Positions 10,826 through 64,000 of a DNA stretch of 64,000 bases are shown here, piece after piece; the stretch's first letter is position 1, and the number at the start of each line of letters is the position of its first letter. This DNA is from Lytechinus pictus (Eukaryota). The stretch covers positions 13,084,001 to 13,148,000 of the forward strand of contig NC_087245.1 in the NCBI RefSeq assembly GCF_037042905.1, written 5' to 3'. The notes under the pieces are model-generated. The model was not told the origin of the DNA, ran no database searches, and saw nothing but the letters and a program-made list of their open reading frames with translations. Made by a program: the position numbers and the translations under genes.

Positions 10826-11311
10826 CTACAAACATCTATGCACGTTCCGATACGACGTACACTCTTCGCATTTAACTTTACAGCACCAGTGAAAGGTGCA
10901 ACTACATCTTTCTTTTACTTTGATTTCAGTTGTTGTCGAACCTCTTTGACAGCACAAAAGATCGCATCCATCCACGCCCAATGACGTGGCGTTGCATTCC
11001 CGCCCTCTCGTTCCTGGCGTGCCGAACTTGTGATTCGGCTCGCAAAAATCAGGCGAGTTTTCAAAATACACCAGATCTCGTGAGGAAGGTTGCTTATGAG
11101 ATGGGTTGTAAGGCACGAAGCTGGATTCGGTTTCGCGATCGCTTGGATTGCCGTCGTTTCTCATTGTAACTCGGGAGGCGCCGTCGAAACGGTCCTTGAT
11201 TAGTTCTCCCACCGTTCTAAAGGTCGGTAATCTCATCCAACACGTCTCTATGGTACAACTGCCAGACATCCCGTGGCATTTACATTCTCGACGCATCTCA
11301 CTGGAAACGGT
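10826..11311 (-). CDS. Wnt1: Wnt1 coding exon 4 (C-terminal, with stop)
   Basis: Acceptor ttcactttag. Encodes [19 protein letters not shown] (the lipidated Ser motif), [25 protein letters not shown] (Wnt1-type) and [13 protein letters not shown]...RCL*. The spliced CDS is 369 aa with 23 Cys. Confidence 0.97.
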
Positions 11312-13368: not shown

Positions 13369-13613
13369 TATACACAACAAAAAAAGTTTGACTTCAAAAT
13401 AATGAATTAAATGGCCAAGGGAACATATATTATTTCCAATACTAATAAATTGACGTTAGACAAATATGTTTGTATGTGTCATTAACTCACTAGTGTTATC
13501 AAATGATTATGGTGATTTGTGTACTAGAAGGACTTAAATTTAATCAATTGCGCTTCATTCTAAATCGTGTAGTCCAATGCTATCGAGTATCGACAGAAAT
13601 AATATATTCTTAC

Positions 13614-13879
13614 TTTTCTCCCTGCTTCATTATTATGCAAGTTCATAGCATGTCTGAGATCTCGTCCTTTTTCGCCCGAGTCCACGAACTTCTTGCCGAA
13701 TCGGTGGCCGAAGTCGACGTTGTCACTGCAACCGCCCCATTCCCAGTCATTTCCACTGTCACCGCGGTACTTGTAATCACACGTGCAAGATTCGATTGTT
13801 CCTTCACTACACGATCTCGCCACCGAGTGCGTCACTGCTGCGCTGGTTATTGAGTAGATGAACGCAGTTTCTCGGCAAC
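13614..13879 (-). CDS. Wnt1: Wnt1 coding exon 3
   Basis: Acceptor ttctgaacag after a pyrimidine tract, donor gtaaga. Encodes [27 protein letters not shown]...[13 protein letters not shown]...[11 protein letters not shown]. It is 266 nt, phase 1 to phase 0. Confidence 0.97.
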
Positions 13880-16800
13880 CTGTTCAGAAAAGAAAGAGAA
13901 AAAGCCAAAGTTAATGTATCATTAGAAAATCGAATTGATACGTCTCTTTTATTTGATTTTCATTATTTCAATGTTATTTCTGTATTTCATCTCTTTGGTG
14001 CTGTTTTGACAAGCCCATACTGTTCTATAAAATGTTGCCAACAAAGTTCGTCATTTTTTTATAATCAGTTCATATTTCATACGAAAAAAATGGTGAACAA
14101 ATCCGACAATGGTATTTGCGCTATCTTTATATGATTTTAATCATTTTTTGTCGATGTATAAACCAAAAACAAAGGAAAATCGAAAAGAACCGTTCATTTC
14201 ATTTCCATCCATAAAATCCAATCATAACTTAATATAAATTTAAATTGGGAAATGCGTGTGACGAAAGTGAGGTGATAAATAAATTAAGACGATAAGCCTA
14301 TCAAATATGTTCATGTAGTTTGATATCTTTCATTACATGCTGAACCTTGAAATCTCGAACAGTCACGTGACTTTTCATCAATGACCGAGCATTTTTTTTA
14401 CATGATTGCTTTCATCATTCTGCGACGAAGGCGTGGTGATGGTTATGCTGACACCATCTTGATGAGCATGGGTTACAGGAAGATACTACTTCCGGGTCAA
14501 GGAGGGGTGAGTCATTGAGACTTGCCTTTCACCGTGGCACTTTAACCATCCTTACTCAAGATTATAACCTCCAAAAAGCGGGTTAAGAGATTCCCTCCCC
14601 GTTAGTCATTCGAGATGACATTGGACAGACATGAGTTACAGGTATCAATAGCAGCTTAACGGAGCTTAAGGTTATTAAGTAGTGAATTAGGCATTAAGAG
14701 CAATCGAATTTCTTTGCGGGTTGCGGAATACCCGAACGCGCGGGCAATAGGCAATTCTTTACTCACCAATTGTGTTAACTTCTATTCAATCAGTCAATAG
14801 CATTTAAAGCGGGTAAGATAAATAGTCAAAAGCGATATTCAAGTGTCAAAAATGTGGATGATTATGAAAGGATTTAATCAAATCAATAGATACGTTGGTT
14901 GTTTGGACAGTTGGGCCGATTTTCACACGTACGTGTTTTTGAACGTCGATCGCGTTATTCTCCGAATGCGTTCAGGCATGCGTGCATGGACTATGCATTG
15001 ACTCTTGCAGGACAAGATGTCTCAATAAACTCCACTTTTTCACGAACAAAGAGATTCAACCACGAATCAATGAGATTGATAGGATTTTAAGAAAAAGAGG
15101 GTAACCTCTTGTGGGATATTAAGGTACTCGTAAGCTTTGAACATGTTCTGTGTGTAGAATGAGATGATTCTTTGGTCAACAATATCAGAGGAAGAAGAAT
15201 CTTTAAAAGTATCATTTGCAATTCGAGAGACACGAACTTTTGAAAATGATTATTGTTTATTGATGATTGGTATTTCCTTAGGTCATCGATCGTCATTAGT
15301 GCTACGCAATATCCTTTTCCCTGTAAATATGATAATCATATGGGAATTGAGAAGTTAATTTTAATGTGTAAATAATAATCATGCTCGCATGAAAATGCTA
15401 CCTATTTGATTTTGCAATTTTATTTTTCGTCATATTTATTTGATTGAAATCATGTTTATTTGAGACCAATCAGCAGGTCAGAGGATAGACAAAAGTCTTC
15501 TTCATGCGTGATAAAATCATGACTTAATTGTATTGACATAAATGAGCAGCAAGTTTAGATCCGTTCTATAATTTTCGAGAACATAGATTTAGTGTGCGAT
15601 AAGACTATGAAGCACTAGGGAGACGTTCTTGGGGGAAACATGAAGTTATTTCGAGAAAAGATGGAAATAGGGTCGGAAAACAGAACATTTGAACGAGGAG
15701 AATAAACACTATCAAAAATGTGGTGAGAGAAAAGAAGAACAAATCTCTGAATGATATATCAGAACGAGGCATGGGATAGACAGCTTAAACTGCCTTTGAC
15801 TTTCATTAACTCTCGTTTTGAAAATTAAAAGATCTCGTGTAATGTATCGTCTGATCACCCATACCATTTATTCGTTCTGTTCCTCATCCTCTCTGTTCAA
15901 TTTATATTTTAGAATTTTACCTCTTCTTTACCTCTTCTTATCTTTCTTTATTCAAGAAGGCTTCATCTCCGTCGGGACATTAACCCGTCTTTCCGTTTCC
16001 CCCTCCCCATCTTTTGACACTGAAGTTAGCCGCCAAATAGTAAACAAACTTTTCGACTGAAGTTTTCCCCTCTCGCTCCGCTTTGTCTACGGTGTCCTCG
16101 AAGACGGATTAGGGGTATACCATGCTCTATTTATTTCCCCAAGCCCCATGCGCGTTGATGTATTCCTTCTATGCGTATGTTGCTAGGACACATGAGGTCC
16201 ATAAGAGGTATTCAAATGCTTGCATGTTCATCAAATGCACTAACGTTTAGGGTTACGACGACTGAGGTTTAAAATGTAATACAGATTACTAACTTTTGAA
16301 AGTGCCGTGTTTACAAATAAGTGAATAAATCATATGCGCAAAAATCGTGTATACATGTCTTATTTCGTCATTTCAGAGAACAATGGTGATTTCTTTACAT
16401 CAGCAGTATAATTTCGTTCGAATTTTATCATATCCACATCAAAATGTCTTACTTTCTTACTTTTCCGCCTACTCATCAAATCTGAAGAACTATAAAAAAT
16501 GGTCTCTCTGAATTTAGATTATTAATCGGTGTTGACAGTTAAAACACTGTTTCCCTTTTCGGTTTCTCTGTCGTTCCTGTGTTTCACAGTCTTCCCTCGA
16601 TGAGTCGTACATGCACACTTCAGCAGCTTAAATTGAGCAGATAATTGGGAAACGGGTGAATTCCATTTGCCTCGGGGTTCAACAAAAGTCACAAACGCAC
16701 AAGAGAGGAAACACATTAAAATGTTTTTTATGTCATTTGTAAATGTGGTTAAACATTTCCGAGTTTCATCGGATATTTTAGACGGAGTGAAAGTGCATTG

Positions 16801-25935: not shown

Positions 25936-26310
25936 TGAGACACATACCGGACCATGCATATAGTCACATACATGGATAAAACATAATTTTCATAAGGATT
26001 CGTAACACTGATTCTTCTTTAAACTTGAATTCTTTTGAATTTTTGCTTAATTTTGATTAAGTAATCTTTGGTACCAGTGTCAATACCCATGGAGGATTTT
26101 GTTCTTAAATATTTACATCTGTAAGTGACTGTTTTTATAGAAACAAACTCTTGAATATTGAATATCAAATCTCGATTTACGGATCCAAGAACAATTATTC
26201 TACATGTATAATGAAAGAAATGTTAATTTCGTTCATTTTGTCGTTTTCAGTTGGGTCTCAATCTTGTTATAACCAAGACTACAAAGACAAATAAAAACTT
26301 TCACACTTAC

Positions 26311-26576
26311 CACTATTCAAAATCTTTCCAAAGAGACTCTCTGGACCCCTATCTTTGTTGAAAGTCGGGCAGTTCCATCTTCTCTCTTTAAACTGATATC
26401 GACATTCTGAAACGGCCATCTTGACTGCTCTGTTAATGGCGGCTAATGCCCCTCGATTCTGAGAGACCAACCTTCTTTGTCGTTTGTTTAAAATCTTCAA
26501 TTTGTTATCTATGATGTTTATGATGCCTTGTGTGTCTGTCACACTGTTCGTCATACTCGGTGATAGCACCATACTC
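26311..26576 (-). CDS. Wnt1: Wnt1 coding exon 2
   Basis: Acceptor ttttgttaatag, donor gtaagt. Encodes ...LNKRQRRLV...AVSECRYQFKERRWNCPT...LFGKILNS. It is 266 nt, phase 2 to phase 1. Confidence 0.96.
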
Positions 26577-30145: not shown

Positions 30146-33100
30146 CATCACCCCGCCCCCTCTATAGCTGCATGGGCCCACTGTACGCCTCTTGGCCTAT
30201 TTGCGGACTGTGTGTATTGTCAAGGTGTAATCTGGTTTCTTGAACCAAGGGCATGTAAGGTCACGGTAGCCTTTTCGTCACCTAACAAGAATCGGGTATC
30301 CATCTAACCGGACACGTGCTGATAAGATAATAGAATAAGTATTTTCTAACACTGGACAGTTTCACGTGTTCTCTGACCTAATAACGAGGTCGGCCACTAG
30401 AACGGATGAATATTGGTTTTGCCAATTTAGCTTCAATTAGATGGGTACAAGAAAACACCGTTGCAAATTGGCAGCGGCGCGTCCGATGCTTATTGGTGAT
30501 TAAACTCACGCATTCTTGGACGGTTTTGTAACCTGCGCAAGCAACGCGACTATCAGACTGCGTCTCGAATGGAAATTTTGAAATGAATTGGTGATGCGTA
30601 AGACGCGTGCGTGTCAAAGAATGAAGGAACGTAGGCTGTAGGTGGAAGTGAGAGTACATAAAAAGTGCATAGTGGTTCTCGGAAGCGCGTCATTATTTAC
30701 GTTGCCGTCTTGGGCTGATCCTCAAGCAGCTGAGCTGATCGCACCGAGACAAGAACTTAGAAATTGGTCTAATTATTTCACCCAGCCTCGAGGAAATATG
30801 CAATGACCGTCCCCCTTCCGCCAGAATTTTCTCATCCTTCTTCGCTTCCACCTACACGTTTTAGCAACGCGCTACTGGTCTTGGAAAACTCCTTAAGCCC
30901 TCCAGCAAAGTTTCACTACTTTTTTTTTTTTGCCTGTAGTATACCCTATACAGAGAAGGTTATAGGTATTGAGCCTACATGAGGGTTAAGTTATATTGAC
31001 CAATGTAAAACCTTCATGATCCTTCCAATCGATAAATACGATTCAAACATTAGCCTTACCAATTCCCAAATCAAAAAGGGCCAAAATTAAGAATAACAAA
31101 GTTGAAATCTTCAAGGAGTTTTGCTATCGCATGGCGTAAAAACTGGCGCACACTTCGACGAACCATGCATGAGTGACGTCACATAAATCATGTCGAGAGA
31201 AGAAGTGAAGTTATGAACTGAACATTGAAAGTATCGCATTGAGTCTGAATTATGTATTCCCCAACAGACTTGATCACTTGGAATTAGCAAAAGAAAATGT
31301 GCCTGTGCGATTGGCGTATATTGTTTTATTTAATAGCATCACCTGATTGGCACCATTAAATTACATTCAATATGATTAATAAGATAATCTAAAAATAAGT
31401 TATCGGTCTATACTTTAAAAACATGATTATTGAGTAACTTACTAAGATTACTTTGTCTCAACACAAAGACAATATTGTGGCCGAAATTATCACGAGGGGC
31501 AATAGGGCTGACAACAGGTGCCAATTTAAATCTAAGGAAGGACGGAGGCAGTCTGTTTGCCTTCGACAATTATGTCTCCATATCACAGTTGTATACGATC
31601 GTCTCGACATCGTCATTCTGACATTTTCTAGACCTAGATAAAACAATGCTTCTCAAAAATCAGCCATGATCCCATTGTATCTGACAACCTAATTCACGAT
31701 TAAAAGTTGAGAAAGTCACCCTATTTTGATTGTTAAACTGCACGCACGGTCTTGCAAGTCTTATTCGATTTGTGTTTGAGACTGGTAAGTAGTGCCAAGC
31801 CTAGTCTCGACAATCATCTTCTCTTGGAAAGGTAATTTGAAATTCTGGCTAAATAAGGAACAATTAAATTTGGATATCCCAGAAAGAAATGCACAGCCAA
31901 AAATACCGACTTTATAAAAGGAATAGATTATAATGACGTCACCCCAATTTAAAAGATCTTACCCATCATCTTTTTTATGATATTTTTCTCAAATTTGATT
32001 GGATATCACTTTTGTTTTAACGCCACTTTAGATACTAAAAAAATCTTTCGTTATTTGTTGGGCTGATTTGATTAAAGATCTTGGTAATTATCATCTCAGT
32101 TGAAATGCAACAAGATGAATATTCATACACATTGCATCTTTATCATTAATGTAATTATGTCATATTGAAACGAACCATTAATGATAAATCAACGTAATAC
32201 TTCAATCAGTGATATAAATCTTGCAAATTACATATTCACCAAATTATCTAAGCACAGGGTTTTGTTCTTGTACCATGAACTTTTGAATAAACCCAACAAT
32301 AGATCATTACAAAGGGAAGCACAATTTAAGTGCTTTAAATCTTAAGCAGATATGAACGTGTTATTTTCTCAATAATTAATTTGAACTTATTCATTCCATT
32401 GAAGCAACTTCCCATAAAAAATGTAGGGCCTAAGGCATTAGTGCAAGAAATTAATAGCTGTTTAGAAACATCATCATTATTGGGAACAACTAACTCTGCC
32501 ATTAACCCTGCCATTACAGTGCATCACTAAGATTGCCGTCAAATTATCTAATGAAATGGGTGATTTAAAGGCTATTTTAGTGTAACTCAAAAAAGTGCAC
32601 GCATTTTTCTTTAAGTGTACATGGCATGAAAACAGGAACATTTAACAAGTGAATACGGTAGCTATAAGTGCATTGGCAATGAAAAGGGGACGTGAACTTC
32701 TACCCAGACAATATAGAAGCGAGGCTGAATCAGGCAGGAACAAATTGAAACAATTTCAACTCTAAGAAGTACACGAGAACCCAGGCTTTATGATAACAAT
32801 ATCTACAACAATATTTAACAGTATCTTTTCCCTCTCCAAGATTAAACTCTCTGAGGAAGGACAAGCAAGTATCAATCAGACATGACCAGAATCCCTACTG
32901 CGTGTTAAATAGGCAACGCCACAATGGGGTCATGCTGCCACAAACGTTGCTCTACGGGGTGAGCCCTTCGCGCCGTGCGGATAATAGGCCGACAGCTCGG
33001 GGGGCACTTACGAACTCTCCGCGCTCTATCCCTTGATCGTAGCCGCATGTTTATCGCCGTAAGCAGAGGGTAAGCGGGCGGTCTGAAGGCAAACTCTGAA

Positions 33101-44600: not shown

Positions 44601-46764
44601 TCATTTTGGGAAAAAAACACGGAACCAGTTAGATTCCTGTATTGGATTCTTTAACAGATGTTTCTGACAAACGCCCACGAATACATAATACAGCGTTTTA
44701 TTGAATCAACGTTTAATTGTGTTCACTTGTTAATCTGTCCATCGTTTGACTTACATATTTAGTTGAATTATATAATCAAGAAAATTTTGCATTAAAATCA
44801 CTAAATCGACATTAGAAAAACCAAGTGATATTCCAAAAATTGTATTGGTAGATTTCCCCTTCTTGTTGAAATAAGTGATGTTCCTTGAACCAACGTGAAA
44901 TGTGATTTAACAGCATTTATTCAAATTAAGTTACTCGTCATCCGTTTCGAATGCTCATAAATTTTAAGTATCTCTTTTCGGGATTATTATCGTTGTGCAT
45001 AATTGTCCTTGAAAACCCTTAAGCCTGTCTATTTCAAGCTCATTCCAATTTAAATATTATCCTCGTTGCGATAATTAAGAAAGGTCCATCATTTTAAACA
45101 ATACTTCACATGGGCTTTGCCTTTCTTGTATTCTCTGTAAGTTTGATTTTGGATGAAAGAGATGATTAAGGCTATGCTGATATATCTGGCACGGTTCATA
45201 CATACAAGTCTTTATGGATTAAATGTTAGTTCCCCAGAAAGTTTAGTAGTGCCGGAAAGAACAAGTGTTCGGTGGTAGTGTCGTGTTTACCTCAGCTGCT
45301 TGGAATTATTCGTCGATGTTATGAGGTTATGACAGGTAGCAGTCAACACGTATTGTAATGAGGTATCTTTTTGCACTCTTTTATGAGCTCATCGCCTAAA
45401 ACACACGTGTTCATAGACCAGTCAACTTCCGTACACTGTTGGCAAGCTATAATTATTATCCGTAAACGAGCTGCAATGCAAAAATGCATGTCGTTGGCAC
45501 CTATACGAACATGCATGCACGAACATAACTTCTAAGCCTATATTAAAGAATAATATACTAACATCTGAAATGAAATTTGTTCGTCTGATTGAAATAAATC
45601 AATATCACTGCCATACTTTGATATCATATTCAGCACACTGTATCTGATGACAACAATCATCCCATATTTTATTATGTTCTCAACGCATTATTCAAAGCAG
45701 CAATCATGTACATAATATTAGGCAGATGACTTCACCTTAATTGAAACGAATGTTTGGTTCCAATAAAGCACTTCGAAGTGAATGTAATTAAGGAATATAT
45801 GCTATTATGACTCCATGAAATGATAACAAAACAGAGTTTGATTACATCTCAAACTGAGTTTTAGTTAAGTTTTTGGAAATGTGAACTATATATATTGCAC
45901 CTTTCATAGATACAAGTAACTCCCCATTTATTTCGTCTAGTTTCAAATAAGTCTCTCTCAAGCTTCATACTTTTCTTATGAAGTTTCCTCGTATAGGTGA
46001 TATATTGAAAGACTGAAAGCAGATACAATAGTGGCTTTCAACGATTACTTTATTCGAACAGGAAGACACGGAATGCATGGCATTGAAGAAAGGAGTATCG
46101 TGTAGATAGGGTCAATTAATGTCTAGAAAACCTCCCCAATCTTTGGCGCCATAATAGTGTGGGCCTCTTATACCTATGCTGGTTAACATGACTTGTAATT
46201 TTCCTTTCATTTATTTAGGCTTGATTATAATTTAGTACTGCATGCAATCATAAACTTTACATAGTTTATTGGTATTTGATATCTATATATCTACATGTAC
46301 ATTTACCTTTCAAACCAAGTGGGACATGTTTGACTGAAATGATTGTCATTGAAATAAATTACAGCAGTTTGCTGTAACGATCCGTCCATAAAGCTAAAGC
46401 CGGGGTAATAATATTCAAGTCCTTTGGAAGTGCATAGAGACGTTATATTCATAATGTGGATATGCGCTATACAAGAAATGTTTATTATTATTATTAAATA
46501 TCGGATACTTTTTTTCTTCAAGAATTCAACGAGGCATCAGTTCGAGTTTCACAAATATAAATGATAAATCATTTAAACTAACACGAGAGACAAATGTTTA
46601 TGTAGGTGATATTATATTATCTGCCTTTTCATGGTGTAACGTGAATTATCGTTTGATATTGCACACGCGGAGACGCAAGCTTTAAGCGTAAATCCATTAA
46701 CGGTTTACAAGACAATTGCCGGTGATGCTGAGAACGAATTAGAAACAATCGAGGGATAACTTAC

Positions 46765-46856
46765 CACCATTTTGTACTAGATGCCGCTGTTGTCTTCTTA
46801 GCGAGTAAGCTGGCAGTTGGAATGAAGAAAAACGCTACAAACCACTCAAGTTTCAT
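46765..46856 (-). CDS. Wnt1: Wnt1 coding exon 1 (signal peptide)
   Basis: Hand translation gives MKLEWFVAFFFIPTASLLAKKTTAASSTKW-TG, followed by a canonical gtaagt donor (46764 downward). It has a hydrophobic N-terminus. The phase-2 end completes the WW motif with the single leading G of exon 2, matching the typical Wnt1 exon 1/2 junction. The exon is 92 nt. Confidence 0.88.
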
Positions 46857-60068: not shown

Positions 60069-61588
60069 TAATTCTTGAAAATCGTAGCTGTTTACGCCTC
60101 TTCTCAGCCCGATACCTTTCATGTTCAAAATACCATGTGACCATCTGAACATTATATTATGAACCCTGAAGCTCAACCCTTTTACATTATAAATTGAAGC
60201 TATATTTATGAGGCTTATGAATTATACATTTTGTACGAGGCTCCCCCATGTTTAGAAGCATCAGGGTATGTGACAAACGTCAACTCGGTTAAATTTATGG
60301 ATTGACGGTTATGTATTCATTTTGTTGCAAAGGAAGGAATGATTCCTCAAATTTGACATTGCACTATACATGATCATGGAAATTTGCCTGAAATTGATTC
60401 GTTCTCTTCGAGCCAGGAACTTTCATTCGTCATGTAACGAGGAGGGAAGCGGTCTAGTAATTCGGACACACATTGCCATGTAACAAAGTGCTGAAAGATT
60501 AGCGATGTTTCTAGGTTATGCCTTGATCAACCAGTAGATTCCAGTAAGAATTCAAATCAAATTGGTATCATTTGGTTGATTATGACTATTTATATATGGC
60601 CAAATAATATTTTTCGCTTTTGATATTTTTGGCCCAGGTAACAGAGAGTGAAAAGACTATTCTGTCAGTCGGGCGACTGCTTTCACATAATGACCAATGC
60701 AACCAATCGTAATTATAGCGCTCGGTGTAACGTACAACATGCAGATTTCTTGATGTGTTTCATGGTGTTTGGGGGTAACTAGCAGACCTATACTACTTGA
60801 GTGCCAAGCAAGCGAATGGGGCGATCGAGCGCATGAAGGGTATATATTTTTACTTTCTGAAAGTCTGATTGCACGTTCAACAAGTCTCTTGTACCCTGTA
60901 AATTGATTCTGCTTTGTTATGACAGTAACGCAGAGACATAATTTCATTATATACTAAAAGTACCAACATTCTTAATCTCTAGAACTAATTGAAAAAAAAA
61001 GTTCACATATCATGCACGTTTGGAGGGTAAATGTTTTTGGGTAAACTAGAAAGCGTAATGGTAAATGTCCACTCAACATTGTGTTAACTTTACCAGCAAA
61101 CATGCAGACACGCCCCCTCTTTACCCAATATTAAGGGGGGGGGGTGGTTAGACTGTGACGGATCATCGCATTTACACATTATTTTCTTTTCTATACCAAG
61201 TTATATAAAAATACAAGCATTCTATCAAATCATTTACGGTCATCACAACCATGGTTATTGATATTTAGATTAATTACTGTTTCATTGGTTGTCGCGATAA
61301 TTGACCACCCGATTTCATGCAGGTCAATCAAGATAAAACGCTTGCATCTGCGGCCGTTACTGAACAACATTTAATGATGTTATGACAGACAAGTTCCCAG
61401 TACATGAATTATGTAATCAAGGTAAAGGGAGTATTTTCCCGTCCATTGACCTTTGTCAGCAATTATGTGGGCAAATCTAGATACATGAGTAATTGAGTAT
61501 AAAAAAAGACTATTTAGATGACGAATAATATGACGTAATAAAGGAAAATATACATTAAAAAATATTTTTTATTGTACGAATGGCGTCG

Positions 61589-62815
61589 CACAGTGGGCCG
61601 GGGCGAAACAAAAGTGCGCCAAAAGTCATTTTGGGCAATTTCAGATTTTTATTTTTTGTTATGCCCAGCTGAAAGACAACACTTTGAAGAATACTTCAGC
61701 AAAATATTTAATTCCGAAATTTGCATAAAGGTTGTTAATTTCCAACCTCAAATCGTAAAATGTGACATTTTGCGAAATGCCGCGTATATGACAACTTAGT
61801 TGAAAAACAGGCAATTTCCCAGGAGGTTTTTCATGTAGGAATCTGAAATGGCTCCAACATAATCCTGATATATTCTTTTTTTGTGTGTGAAAGGGTTCAA
61901 AGTAGATAAAAGACACCTTTCAGGAGGTTTATAGTATGATTATTCCTCGAAATAGGCTGAAAATCCATGTTTTTTGCATTTACATTAGAAACGTTTGGAT
62001 TTCCGTGGATTTCCGTCTAATTTCTATCATCATCATTTTTTCTGATGTCTAAGCTTTAAGACGATACCAAATTTAGCTGCCCGTTTTTGCCCGTTGCCAT
62101 GTGAGAGCCGATTTTACTTGACACAACACCCCCAAAACCTGTTCAAAAACGGTAATTTTATACCGCGCATTCATTGTAGCGCACCGTATGGGTGTACATT
62201 GCCGTTCGCTTTTGCACGGCGAGGACGATTCCCCTTCCATTCCATGAAAATGACATGAATTCCGGGCAAAATGTAAACAAAATAAAGGTTGCTAACGCAA
62301 ATAAGGGCTATACTCACAACTCTTCCAGAGTTAAAACTTACTTGTAGAATAATTTCAGCCAAAAACCCTCCTCATAGTAATACATTCTTGGTGCTAAATA
62401 CACTACATTTTACACAAGTAAACACAGCTTCATAAAGCACGGTTAATATTTTTCAGATTTTCTTTTTTCTTTTTATAAATCTAATTAATGATCATTTTGA
62501 TGCTATAAAATTATTTTCAGGATCTCATACACACTTTTTAGGCATGTGAGAAGCCTAAACCAACATTCACTCTGGTCAATCTTAAAGTAGCACATAACAC
62601 AAAATTTATATACTACACATTGTCTAGCGTAATTTGTCTTCACAGATAGGTTTTAAGTAGCCAATCAAAATTTGGTATCAAGGTGACGTCAAATCGGCTT
62701 TAGATTATGTTCAGTCGATTCTACGCCAAAAATTACCCATAGTCACCTTGTTAAAGTAAAAATCTAACGCGGAATATAATTTTGGCGCACTTTCAACTCA
62801 TTCTGGCCCACTGTG
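61589..62815. mobile_element. Non-autonomous Transib/RAG-like DNA transposon
   Basis: Both ends read CACAGTGGGCC...AAAGTGCGCCAAAA inward, an imperfect TIR of about 36 bp. There is a perfect 5-bp GC-rich TSD, CGTCG (61584-61588 and 62816-62820). No transposase ORF is present. Confidence 0.88.
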
Positions 62816-64000
62816 CGTCGTTGAGGACTGGGGGAGCCAAATCTTCTACTTTGCCTACTTCTAACCTATGAACTTTTTAGAAATACATGTAGAATGAATC
62901 TTAAATCAATGAATCAATAAGTTCAACGATGATGACAATTCAAAGGCGATGAAATGCATACGCCATCTAGTGTGCTTCATTTTCGTAGATACATATTCAG
63001 AAGGCTTTATGAAAGGGCAAAAAATAAAAAATAAAGATCAAAGTATACCTTACGAACAAAAATACATATGTAAAAAATATAGCTTTGAATTACATCAACC
63101 CTGTTTAAAACCTATCATTAATGATTGCATCATTTTCTAAGTAAGTGGTGCATGTTCGAATAAATTTTTCCTCTTATTGAATAATTACCAACCATGGAAA
63201 CGGATCATTAGATAATGGTGGCTTAAATATCGGATAAGAAAGAAAGAAAGAAATATATATAAGACATGTAAAAGAAAGAATTAAACAATGTGAACAACTG
63301 AGGAAAAAAGAAGGGGATAATGATGAATATGCTGGATATGATAAGCATATGAATCTACACCCCAAAAGATAAGGACAGAAATACAAAAATATACACCTGT
63401 TCTGTCGCAGTCTCAACGAGCCGGACTAAAACGATCGATATGCTAAAGAACCCCAAAACCAATCGTTTCGATCGGTATTAAGTATTTTTTGTTCGTGTGA
63501 CTGTGACACTAGCTGTTGCCTAAATCTTGCCACACACGATTTCATTAAAAACGACAATGTTTTTTTTTCCTTTTTTAAACTTCAGCATGTCCTAGTTTCA
63601 TTTGCAACAAGTACGTTTGATAGAAAGATTCTCAAATTTCTACAAAAACAAGATTCGTTTAGCGAAGTCGCAAGGTGCCACTTATGTCTTTAAAGTCATA
63701 AAGTATCGCCCTTTTTTAGCCAAAGACATAATTTGAATGGATGTTCGTTCTTACTGCGGAATGATATCTTTACTTTTCATCAATCTTGTTAAAAAAAAGA
63801 GTTGATTCAATTTTTAGTCATTTTATAGGTCAATTATTAAAACAAATAAATTGAATAAAGGTACTGCTTTACATTTCAAAGTTAACACATAAATGTACTA
63901 AGATGTCTTTTGTAAAATTCCTGAAATAGTATAAAATTGATTTTACTAATTTCTTCATTTATCTATATTGTTTTATTCATTCATTCATTCATTCAAGACA

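Follow-up and report, generated by a model that had tools for sequence, protein, structure and literature searches.

A 1227-bp non-coding element with CACAGTG tips

The sequence between positions 61589 and 62815 of the window (the whole stretch of 64,000 nucleotides that was analysed) starts at both ends with CACAGTG, the heptamer of V(D)J recombination signal sequences (RSSs). This raises the question of what kind of mobile element it is, whether its ends are a 12/23-spaced pair of signals, and which enzyme would move it. A preliminary description had reported this heptamer at either tip together with an exact CGTCG target site duplication (TSD), and all of its sequence statements were correct. 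The heptamer lies at 61589–61595 and its complement, CACTGTG, at 62809–62815, and the CGTCG duplication on either side is perfect. The features are as follows.

61584–61588, no strand: left TSD copy CGTCG, identical to the pentamer on the opposite flank
61589–62815, plus strand: whole non-autonomous element, 1227 bp, non-coding, delimited by CACAGTG tips and the flanking duplication
61589–61624, plus strand: left 36-bp terminal inverted repeat, whose two blocks are those of Transib-N1_SP
61589–61599, plus strand: heptamer block CACAGTGGGCC of the left terminal inverted repeat
61600–61610, plus strand: variable spacer GGGGCGAAACA between the blocks of the left terminal inverted repeat
61611–61624, plus strand: distal block AAAGTGCGCCAAAA of the left terminal inverted repeat
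62780–62815, minus strand: right 36-bp terminal inverted repeat, reading CACAGTGGGCC, spacer AGAATGAGTTG, AAAGTGCGCCAAAA
62816–62820, no strand: right TSD copy CGTCG, identical to the pentamer on the opposite flank

The arms of the element form the longest inverted repeat found in the region by an inverted-repeat search (41 nt including the duplication, 78% complementary). Exact matches to CACAGTGGGCC in the 64-kb window are confined to the two element ends, with a one-mismatch site at 30175; the chance expectation is 0.28, and at least three matches were obtained in 0 of 100 shuffles. The G+C content of the window is 34.9%. The longest stop-to-stop frame of the element is 86 aa, so the element must move in trans, as had been proposed. 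An Rfam scan of the element returned nothing reaching the gathering score, and a tRNA scan of it found none. An inner CGCCAAAA at element position 1136 was considered as a subterminal binding site and rejected, being poorly kept (16.8% differing cells).

The element is one copy of a young and abundant family

Copies with the same termini were found genome-wide (281 left and 346 right ends with up to three mismatches; reversed-pattern controls gave 0), confirming the multi-copy family that had been predicted. Since the same boundaries recur across the genome, the structure lies far beyond chance. All 40 scored of the 565 first-look candidates match at 91–100% identity, and 38 of the 41 rows span at least 1199 of 1237 bases at 91–100% identity. 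Among 30 copies, the heptamer CACAGTG is intact at 27 left and 28 right ends, and the distal block of the left end shows 0 differing cells of 406 over 29 other copies. Divergence within the family is 2–4%; the element itself differs by 1.47% from the consensus of its own 9-copy subfamily and its nearest copy is 98.6% identical, in agreement with the earlier suggestion of a fairly recent insertion. The element is one copy among several hundred of a young, abundant, mobile, non-coding family.

The end blocks occur exactly at 709 ends in the genome. A second family, of ~2.0 kb, has only these end blocks in common with the family of the element. One of its ends is G-rich, with the spacer AGGAGAGAGCA giving GCAAAAGTG, and the other is of the AGAATGA type (AGAATGAACCC).

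Insertion duplicates a CGNCG pentamer

The 5-bp GC-rich duplication seen at the element recurs among the copies, as the preliminary description had anticipated. Perfect 5-bp duplications flank 26 of 30 copies with the consensus CGNCG (CGCCG 9, CGACG 6, CGTCG 4, CGGCG 4, CAGCG 1, CATCG 1 and CCTCG 1), and mismatched left/right pairs of pentamers, used as a control, agree in 146 of 870 cases. The four exceptions comprise two truncated left ends, one two-base deletion and one single mismatch. In three copies the second base of the pentamer is other than G and both flanks co-vary, which establishes a duplication of 5 bp and excludes one of 1 bp next to a CG belonging to the element. In a host repeat, all 7 of 7 paralogous sites that are unfilled have exactly one pentamer between the flanks (CGTCG 6, CGTAG 1). 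The preference extends into the flanks, 19 of the 26 sites having C at −1 and 17 having G at +1, which gives c|CGNCG|g. This very strict target, together with a clean, young and abundant family, would make good material for the question of Transib target choice.

Many copies sit within (CCG)n tracts or at CG-rich pentamers in older repeats. Such older repeats took repeated insertions at one and the same pentamer, in both orientations.

Among public sequencing runs, which were kept as contigs and each hold at most 0.19 of the words sampled from the stretch, contigs from three studies of one organism end exactly at 61587 and 62817. At that coverage no contig was found to bridge the insertion site, and the listed joints included none spanning the element from end to end. 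The left-flank contig of two runs breaks at 61548 and continues into unlike sequence.

The ends match a published sea urchin Transib family block for block

Transib transposons are defined by GC-rich targets, an end of 38 bp and a duplication of 5 bp, the last of which sets them apart from all other superfamilies (Kapitonov and Jurka, 2005; PMC1131882). Their end consists of a heptamer, a spacer of ~22–23 nt and an A-rich nonamer, with A at consensus positions 34–35 (PMC1131882, section 9). The element has the CAC heptamer, the 5-bp TSD, the GC-rich target and an A-rich box; AAAA stands at positions 33–36, inside the conserved block 23–36, at both ends. The initial assignment to a non-autonomous Transib type, made from inverted ends that start with CAC and from the GC-rich duplication of 5 bp, is upheld, and the remark that the family might already be catalogued was apt, the end type having been published as Transib-N1_SP, a non-autonomous Transib of Strongylocentrotus purpuratus (PMC1131882, Fig. 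S4g). We consider it very probable that the element is a non-autonomous member of the Transib superfamily of DNA transposons and that, by end type, it shares a lineage with Transib-N1_SP. Sea urchin Transibs whose ends resemble RSSs and whose 5-bp duplications are GC-rich have been in the literature since 2005.

The comparison with N1_SP is one of ends, which the published figure prints without the interior. Blocks CACAGTGGGCC and AAAGTGCGCCAAAA are identical and the 11-nt spacing is equal. Both elements are non-coding and multi-copy and have a CGNCG target and duplication, perfect CGNCG-type duplications being present in 8 of the 11 listed N1_SP copies (PMC1131882, Fig. S4g). Unlike the element, N1_SP is a perfect symmetric repeat with the spacer AGGGAGGAACC at both ends, which agrees with the left spacer GGGGCGAAACA of the element at 7 of 11 positions, the right spacer being AGAATGAGTTG; its listed copies measure ~560–990 bp, as against 1227 bp. 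In the present genome the N1_SP spacer was found at 0 of 12 exact-block ends with A at spacer position 5. A full-text literature search with the 11-nt end block gave nothing relevant among the matches listed.

The autonomous Transib1_SP has been reported flanked by CGGCG (PMC1131882). The element resembles Transib1_SP and HzTransib of Helicoverpa zea in its 5-bp duplication and GC-rich targets, its CAC heptamer ends, the ~22–23-nt spacer and the A-rich nonamer-like box, and presumably shares their cut-and-paste chemistry; those transposons are 3–4 kb long and encode a ~700-aa transposase, whereas the element is gene-less. CAC...GTG tips are not exclusive to Transib, and another cut-and-paste superfamily with CAC-starting ends (CACTA/CMC, P or hAT) could in principle have supplied the element. 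Such an origin is extremely improbable, given the 5-bp duplication, seen in 26 of 30 copies and at all seven empty sites, and ends that match a published Transib family block for block.

As a Transib, the element would be bound at its 36-bp ends by a Transib-type DDE transposase encoded elsewhere. In each end, the heptamer block CACAGTGGGCC and the distal block AAAGTGCGCCAAAA would be separated by 11 nt of freely varying spacer, and the A-run of the distal block would occupy the place of the Transib/RSS23 'nonamer'. Excision would follow the nick-hairpin route, as for HzTransib and RAG, and re-insertion with a 5-bp stagger into the near-palindromic c|CGNCG|g would duplicate the pentamer. The enzyme and its chemistry in this scheme are taken from the literature.

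The two ends are equal in length and differ in a spacer

The preliminary description had read the ends as an asymmetric pair with 12/23-spaced nonamer-like motifs. The left end consists of CACAGTG, GGCCGGGGCGAA and ACAAAAGTG, the last of which matches the nonamer ACAAAAACC at 6 of 9 positions. At 23-nt spacing, CCAAAAGTC on the left scores 6/9 and CCAAAATTA on the right 5/9; moving to 12 nt, one reads TTGAAAGTG in the right end (3/9). The nonamer match alone is weak, because a score of 6/9 or better is reached by 1.9% of the 9-mers in the window (2454 of 127,984).

No gap is needed to align the two ends: they agree throughout positions 1–11 and 23–36, and their differences are confined to the 11-nt spacer at 12–22. 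The nonamer-like box is not shifted by 10–11 bp between the ends, and the distal block occupies 23–36 in both. The A-A positions, essential according to Kapitonov and Jurka, are present at both ends and at both spacings. The left ACAAAA straddles the variable spacer; the symmetric N1_SP reads ACCAAAGTG at the 12 position, and two older relatives have ACC (L057) and ACT (L058) in place of ACAAAA. Since N1_SP and the older relatives differ there, ACAAAA is a recent change within an unconstrained spacer. With ends of equal length, the distal block at 23–36 in both and a symmetric N1_SP, the 12/23-spaced asymmetric pair was not borne out. According to the preliminary description, the resemblance was to be taken as coincidental if the consensus proved symmetric and lacked ACAAAA at the 12-bp position; the ends are of equal length, but the consensus of the family retains ACAAAA at the left end. 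This conservation carries no weight, because the family is only 2–4% diverged.

The unlike ends might still work as a functional pair if the transposase had to synapse an end of the 'G-rich ...CA' type with one of the 'AGAATGA' type, a sequence-coded analogue of the 12/23 rule in which ACAAAAGTG on the left would serve as the 12-spaced nonamer. Between left and right, 8 of the 11 spacer positions differ, both spacers are preserved among the copies, and the ~2.0-kb family also has one G-rich AGGAGAGAGCA and one AGAATGA AGAATGAACCC end. Several Transib families, moreover, have RSS12-like and RSS23-like ends (Kapitonov and Jurka, PMC1131882), namely Transib5 of D. melanogaster and Transib2, N1, N2 and N3 of Anopheles gambiae (PMC1131882 and PMC8355894). 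These belong to the same superfamily and likewise combine RSS-resembling ends with two unlike ends per element, but the distance of the box is described as differing between their ends, whereas in the element the distance is equal and the spacer sequence alone differs. The A-A positions of the element are satisfied at either spacing in both ends, N1_SP arranges the same blocks in a perfectly symmetric repeat and has ACCAAAGTG at the 12 position, and L057 and L058 have other bases where the element has ACAAAA. A 6/9 match is, as noted, found in 1.9% of 9-mers, and conservation in a family diverged by 2–4% reflects descent. We therefore judge a functional pair unlikely. Across the three versions of the end (the family of the element, the 2-kb sister family and N1_SP), positions 1–11 and 23–36 are constrained and 12–22 are free, a comparison that argues against inferring 12/23 signals from a single copy.

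Longer copies and host RAG1L/RAG2L loci as possible sources of the enzyme

It had been suggested that longer copies might encode a transposase with a Transib/RAG1 core. Longer copies do exist, but those opened lack such a transposase. Pairing drew on a listing of 100 of the 709 exact-block ends and covered contigs from C1 into the early part of C3, and in part as far as C7; neither the pairs listed nor the long copies opened included an autonomous element with these ends. A LINE encoding endonuclease and reverse transcriptase is nested in one 4.6-kb copy (L042). Three copies of 1.5–2.9 kb (L043, L044 and L045) have no open frame of at least 120 aa inside the element, the single frame of that size in L043 running across the right end. 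A 4.2-kb copy of the sister family (L056) contains a 370-aa frame with a weak GIY-YIG match below the Pfam cut-off and no match in PDB. Two further candidates for the autonomous partner were rejected, L057 as a truncated older relative and L058 as an end variant of low copy number that a LINE has interrupted.

A genome search with the Pfam RAG1 model (PF12940; E up to 10) gave 22 candidates, all in RAG1L-type loci. Four RAG1 frames had amphioxus RAG1L (6b40) as their best match in PDB, and a fifth matched Pfam RAG1 only. HzTransib scores 25 bits against the local RAG1L, and on this account the Pfam RAG1 model would probably miss a canonical Transib transposase. The genome contains two intact convergent pairs of RAG1L (612 and 624 aa) and a kelch-PHD RAG2L-like gene, as well as further RAG1L fragments. 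The 9.9 kb fetched around each RAG1L locus share no sequence with the element and contain no pair of a CAC inverted repeat and a duplication.

As the RAG1 search gave RAG1L-type loci and the two intact pairs lack ends of their own, host RAG1-like/RAG2-like proteins, rather than a single-gene Transib transposase, could be imagined to move or cut the element in trans. Both pairs lie in the same genome, no canonical Transib transposase was detected with a model that probably misses such proteins, and RAGL transposons likewise have 5-bp duplications and CAC heptamers. The element resembles RAGL-B (amphioxus ProtoRAG and the echinoderm RAG1L-RAG2L loci) in its CAC heptamer, its 5-bp duplication and the RAG1-fold enzyme family. 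However, the RAGL-B heptamer is directly followed by a conserved A-rich TR2, without an A-rich nonamer (PMC10462144), and RAGL-B has two convergent genes. None of this is present in the element, which has GGCC and then a variable stretch after the heptamer, a conserved A-run only at 33–36 and no frame above 86 aa. The RAG1L loci share neither sequence nor ends with it in the 9.9 kb around each, and recombinant sea urchin RAG1L with RAG2L gave no recombination activity, according to PMC8355894. We regard mobilisation by RAG-like proteins as highly improbable and prefer a Transib-type transposase.

Were RAG-like proteins nevertheless responsible, they would recognise, cut or move the ~700 ends of this lineage, which we likewise rate as highly improbable. 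This would amount to a sea urchin in which RSS-like signals are served in trans by a RAG-like enzyme. Yakovenko et al. reportedly put forward in 2021 a 'guardian of the genome' idea that comes close to this. A milder version, in which the enzyme would need one G-rich and one AGAATGA end, is suggested by the fact that both families of this end type keep the pairing.

The neighbouring Wnt gene

Taken alone, the element matters little, being one of several hundred copies of a known kind of transposon. Its insertion near a Wnt gene is likewise one of several hundred, and no evidence ties it to Wnt regulation. The preliminary description had placed the element about 14.7 kb upstream of the Wnt1 start codon. 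This is plausible, the gene being placed at the level of Pfam wnt: exons matching that family lie on the minus strand at 26291–26500, 13611–13889 and 10832–11311 of the window, and an ATG-started, signal-peptide-like open frame on the same strand, at 46761–46856 and 14.7 kb from the element, is the putative first exon.

Structure of the element and its assignment to Transib

Direct reading of the sequence bore out the ends and the CGTCG duplication delimited in the preliminary description. A 1227-bp element that starts with CACAGTG and ends with CACTGTG stands between two CGTCG copies:

61584–61588, unstranded, target-site duplication, left copy, CGTCG (direct sequence reading)
62816–62820, unstranded, target-site duplication, right copy, CGTCG (direct sequence reading)
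Left end of the element, tip inwards: CACAGTGGGCC-GGGGCGAAACA-AAAGTGCGCCAAAA
Right end of the element, tip inwards: CACAGTGGGCC-AGAATGAGTTG-AAAGTGCGCCAAAA

The 11-nt and 14-nt blocks have the same letters at both ends, and the 11 nt between them are alike, left versus right, at only 3 positions. No inverted repeat in the region is longer than the one formed by these arms. Within the 64-kb window the exact 11-nt block occurs only at the element's two ends, with one further site at one mismatch; at least three matches were reached in 0 of 100 shuffles. The element contains no stop-to-stop frame above 86 aa, an Rfam search of it gave nothing at the gathering score, and a tRNA search found none.

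As described by Kapitonov and Jurka, Transib transposons are defined by 5-bp duplications, reported there for no other eukaryotic superfamily, and by GC-rich targets; in the 38-bp end, a heptamer of the CACAATG type is followed by a variable spacer (∼22–23 nt) and an A-rich nonamer (Kapitonov and Jurka, 2005; PMC1131882). Figure S4g of that paper gives eleven copies (∼560–990 bp) of Transib-N1_SP, which is non-autonomous and occurs in the purple sea urchin; both ends read CACAGTGGGCC-AGGGAGGAACC-AAAGTGCGCCAAAA, and the duplication (CGGCG, CGACG or CGCCG) is perfect in 8 of the 11 copies. The autonomous Transib1_SP of the same source is 4132 bp long, with a 676-aa transposase and CGGCG flanks. 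When the ends were compared, the element equalled Transib-N1_SP in both end blocks, block spacing and target, and differed from it only in the 11-nt spacer and in length. These identities suggest that the element belongs to the Transib-N1_SP end-type lineage of sea-urchin Transibs, and window 61589–62815 is very probably a non-autonomous Transib transposon of that lineage. The earlier Transib assignment is thus upheld by the 5-bp duplications, the GC-rich target and the end blocks, and the remark that the family may already be catalogued holds for the end type and target, in print since 2005.

Copies and target choice

A search of the genome (811.7 Mb, 368 contigs) with the element yielded 565 first-look candidates. 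All 40 that were scored had 91–100% identity, and 38 of 41 rows covered 1199 or more of the element query's 1237 bases. End patterns with up to 3 mismatches were counted 281 times (left) and 346 times (right); reversed-pattern controls gave 0. The window's copy is a young member of an abundant non-coding family.

Duplications were analyzed at 30 loci, the window's own copy among them. All 30 had unchanged boundaries and kept both unlike spacers, and the expected 5-bp duplication was perfect in 26 (CGCCG 9, CGACG 6, CGTCG 4, CGGCG 4, CAGCG 1, CATCG 1, CCTCG 1). Of the four imperfect loci, two (L003, L029) are damaged at the left tip, L011 lacks 2 bases at the right tip and L022 has a single mismatch. 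Left and right pentamers agreed in 87% of cases, against 17% (146/870) when randomly re-paired, the latter because the target is very constrained. Three copies have a second pentamer base other than G, and the change is present on both sides together. The duplication is therefore five bases long, and the alternative of a 1-base duplication next to the element's own CG was rejected. The target is a near-palindrome, c/CGNCG/g; position −1 is C in 19 of the 26 sites, and position +1 is G in 17 of them.

The host of copy L009 is an older, abundant repeat with 2904 first-look candidates in the genome. Empty sites with a single pentamer, envisaged in the preliminary description for other individuals, were found at paralogous positions: in all of the seven other host-repeat copies that were fetched because their match reached the insertion point (L049–L055), exactly five bases lie between the flanks, without the element (CGTCG in 6, CGTAG in 1). 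The same host-repeat CGTCG was struck repeatedly and in both orientations (L009, L012, L030, L043); identical bases beside the site extend only 25–33 on either side between L030 and L009, and L012 has the opposite orientation. A second host repeat, with a (CCG)n tract in it, was also entered both ways (L006, L007 and L022 versus L018, L024 and L026). The empty sites and repeated hits are characteristic of an element that inserts by cut-and-paste and selects its target strongly.

Divergence of the copies from the 30-copy consensus is 2.0–4.6%. The window's copy falls in a younger subgroup (L001–L009), from whose consensus it differs at 18 of 1226 positions (1.47%), and its nearest relative among the matches listed is 98.6% identical, which supports the fairly recent insertion proposed earlier. 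In public runs, stored as contigs, at most 0.19 of the stretch's sampled words were present in any run, and none of these contigs bridged the insertion site. In three studies of one organism, many contigs that match the element lose the match exactly at 61587 and 62817, so that independent data confirm the boundaries as well as the target's shared CG.

A sister family and rearranged copies

A second non-autonomous family of ∼2.0 kb has only the two end blocks in common with the element's family; it has AGGAGAGAGCA and AGAATGAACCC as spacers and a CGCCG duplication. It comprises L056 (C2:43151391–43155663), a 4.2-kb copy whose insert has a weak GIY-YIG match, and ten pairs ∼2.0–2.3 kb apart among the ends listed.

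Head-to-tail tandem copies of the element were found at L047:554–2053 and L048:501–2956. At L047 the same CGACG precedes the first copy and separates it from the second, as expected if the second had inserted into the first one's duplication. The two copies at L048 are joined by CGGCGGCG between outer flanks that are both CGCCG, and it looks as if the dimer moved as one unit. L046:501–2316 is a rearranged copy with a right-type end on either side. It consists of one complete inverted element fused to positions 630–1234 of another, has CGGCG on both flanks and occupies the host-repeat site in which L021 and L028 also lie; a renewed insertion into that pentamer and a subsequent deletion may explain it.

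Spacing of the conserved end blocks

The preliminary description had likened the ends to a V(D)J RSS pair with nonamers at 12- and 23-nt spacing. The left end does carry ACAAAAGTG at 12-nt spacing, which agrees with the nonamer at 6/9 positions; the opening ACA belongs to the spacer, and the six letters after it are where the block common to both ends begins. Matches of 6/9 occur at 1.9% of all window positions. The window's seven remaining CACAGTG sites have none at any of six spacings. The distal block is conserved at positions 23–36 from the tip in both ends, with no length asymmetry, and the A-run at 33–36 of both stands in the place of the nonamer A's of Transib and RSS23. In RSS terms, this layout makes each of them a 23-type end.

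Table. Letters at end positions 20–22 in the element family and its relatives
Element family, left end: ACA
Element family, right end: TTG
Symmetric Transib-N1_SP, both ends (PMC1131882, Figure S4g): ACC
Older relative L057, 76% identical over 488 bases: ACC
Relative L058, 70% identical over 704 bases: ACT
2-kb sister family, two ends: GCA and CCC

This variation across relatives indicates that the spacer is free to vary and that the fourth A of the left ACAAAA is a recent change. With the distal block equally placed at both ends and positions 20–22 variable, the 12/23-spaced pair was not borne out. One observation favors some functional difference between the ends: in each of the genome's two families with these end blocks, one spacer is G-rich and ends in CA and the other starts with AGAATGA. 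This pairing is most simply explained as the two ends of a common parent element, and a functional requirement for two unlike ends appears unlikely.

Candidate mobilizing enzymes

Longer copies with a Transib or RAG1-core transposase had been anticipated, but the long pairs opened, with 100 of 709 exact-block ends listed, held nested retroelements and no autonomous partner. A Pfam RAG1 profile search of the genome returned 22 candidates, all in RAG1L-type loci. Four frames from such loci were compared with PDB, with amphioxus RAG1L as the best match; a RAG1L query scored only 25 bits against HzTransib, the autonomous Transib of Helicoverpa zea. Two loci hold intact, convergent pairs:

L031:3997–5832 (+), RAG1-like frame, 612 aa, Pfam RAG1 E 8e-75, best PDB match amphioxus RAG1L
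L031:7543–8415 (−), kelch-plus-PHD RAG2-like frame
L032:4018–5889 (+), RAG1-like frame, 624 aa, Pfam RAG1 E 8e-68
L032:8914–9765 (−), kelch-plus-PHD RAG2-like frame

The L031 pair was found twice, on contigs C182 and C233, with identical scores. In the 9.9 kb fetched for each RAG1L locus there was no sequence in common with the element and no ends with a duplication; the L031 and L032 pairs likewise had no CAC ends with a duplication.

In RAGL-B ends, as described in PMC10462144 and PMC8355894, an A-rich TR2 directly adjoins the heptamer and there is no nonamer. This layout is absent from the element's ends, which makes RAG-like proteins a highly improbable mobilizer. Given this difference, and if the Transib assignment holds, the element would probably be mobilized by a canonical Transib transposase.

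Further RAG1L-type fragments, some with stops, lie at C2:5168566–5171867, C5:41523465–41524425, C2:34085467–34086045, C13:17286199–17287544, C10:30964928–30966099, C9:18143020–18173215 and C2:26719286–26739687. Five weak, evenly repeated matches on C9 from 18154072 to 18173215 look like a tandemly duplicated fragment. L040:3423–3920 (−) is a frame of 166 aa that contains a PC4 transcriptional-coactivator domain (E 3e-16); a C-terminal RAG1L fragment lies ∼0.9 kb upstream of it on that strand.

The Wnt neighborhood

The following wnt exons and putative first exon lie in the window:

10832–11311 (−), Pfam wnt exon
13611–13889 (−), Pfam wnt exon
26291–26500 (−), Pfam wnt exon
46761–46856 (−), ATG-started, signal-peptide-like frame ending KWW

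Measured from the last of these, the putative first exon of a Wnt-family gene, the element lies 14.7 kb upstream, as originally placed. Nothing links the insertion and the gene. Three Wnt-family genes occur within ∼135 kb (C1:13066042–13199037), one just before the window (+), one inside it (−) and one ∼39 kb after it (+).
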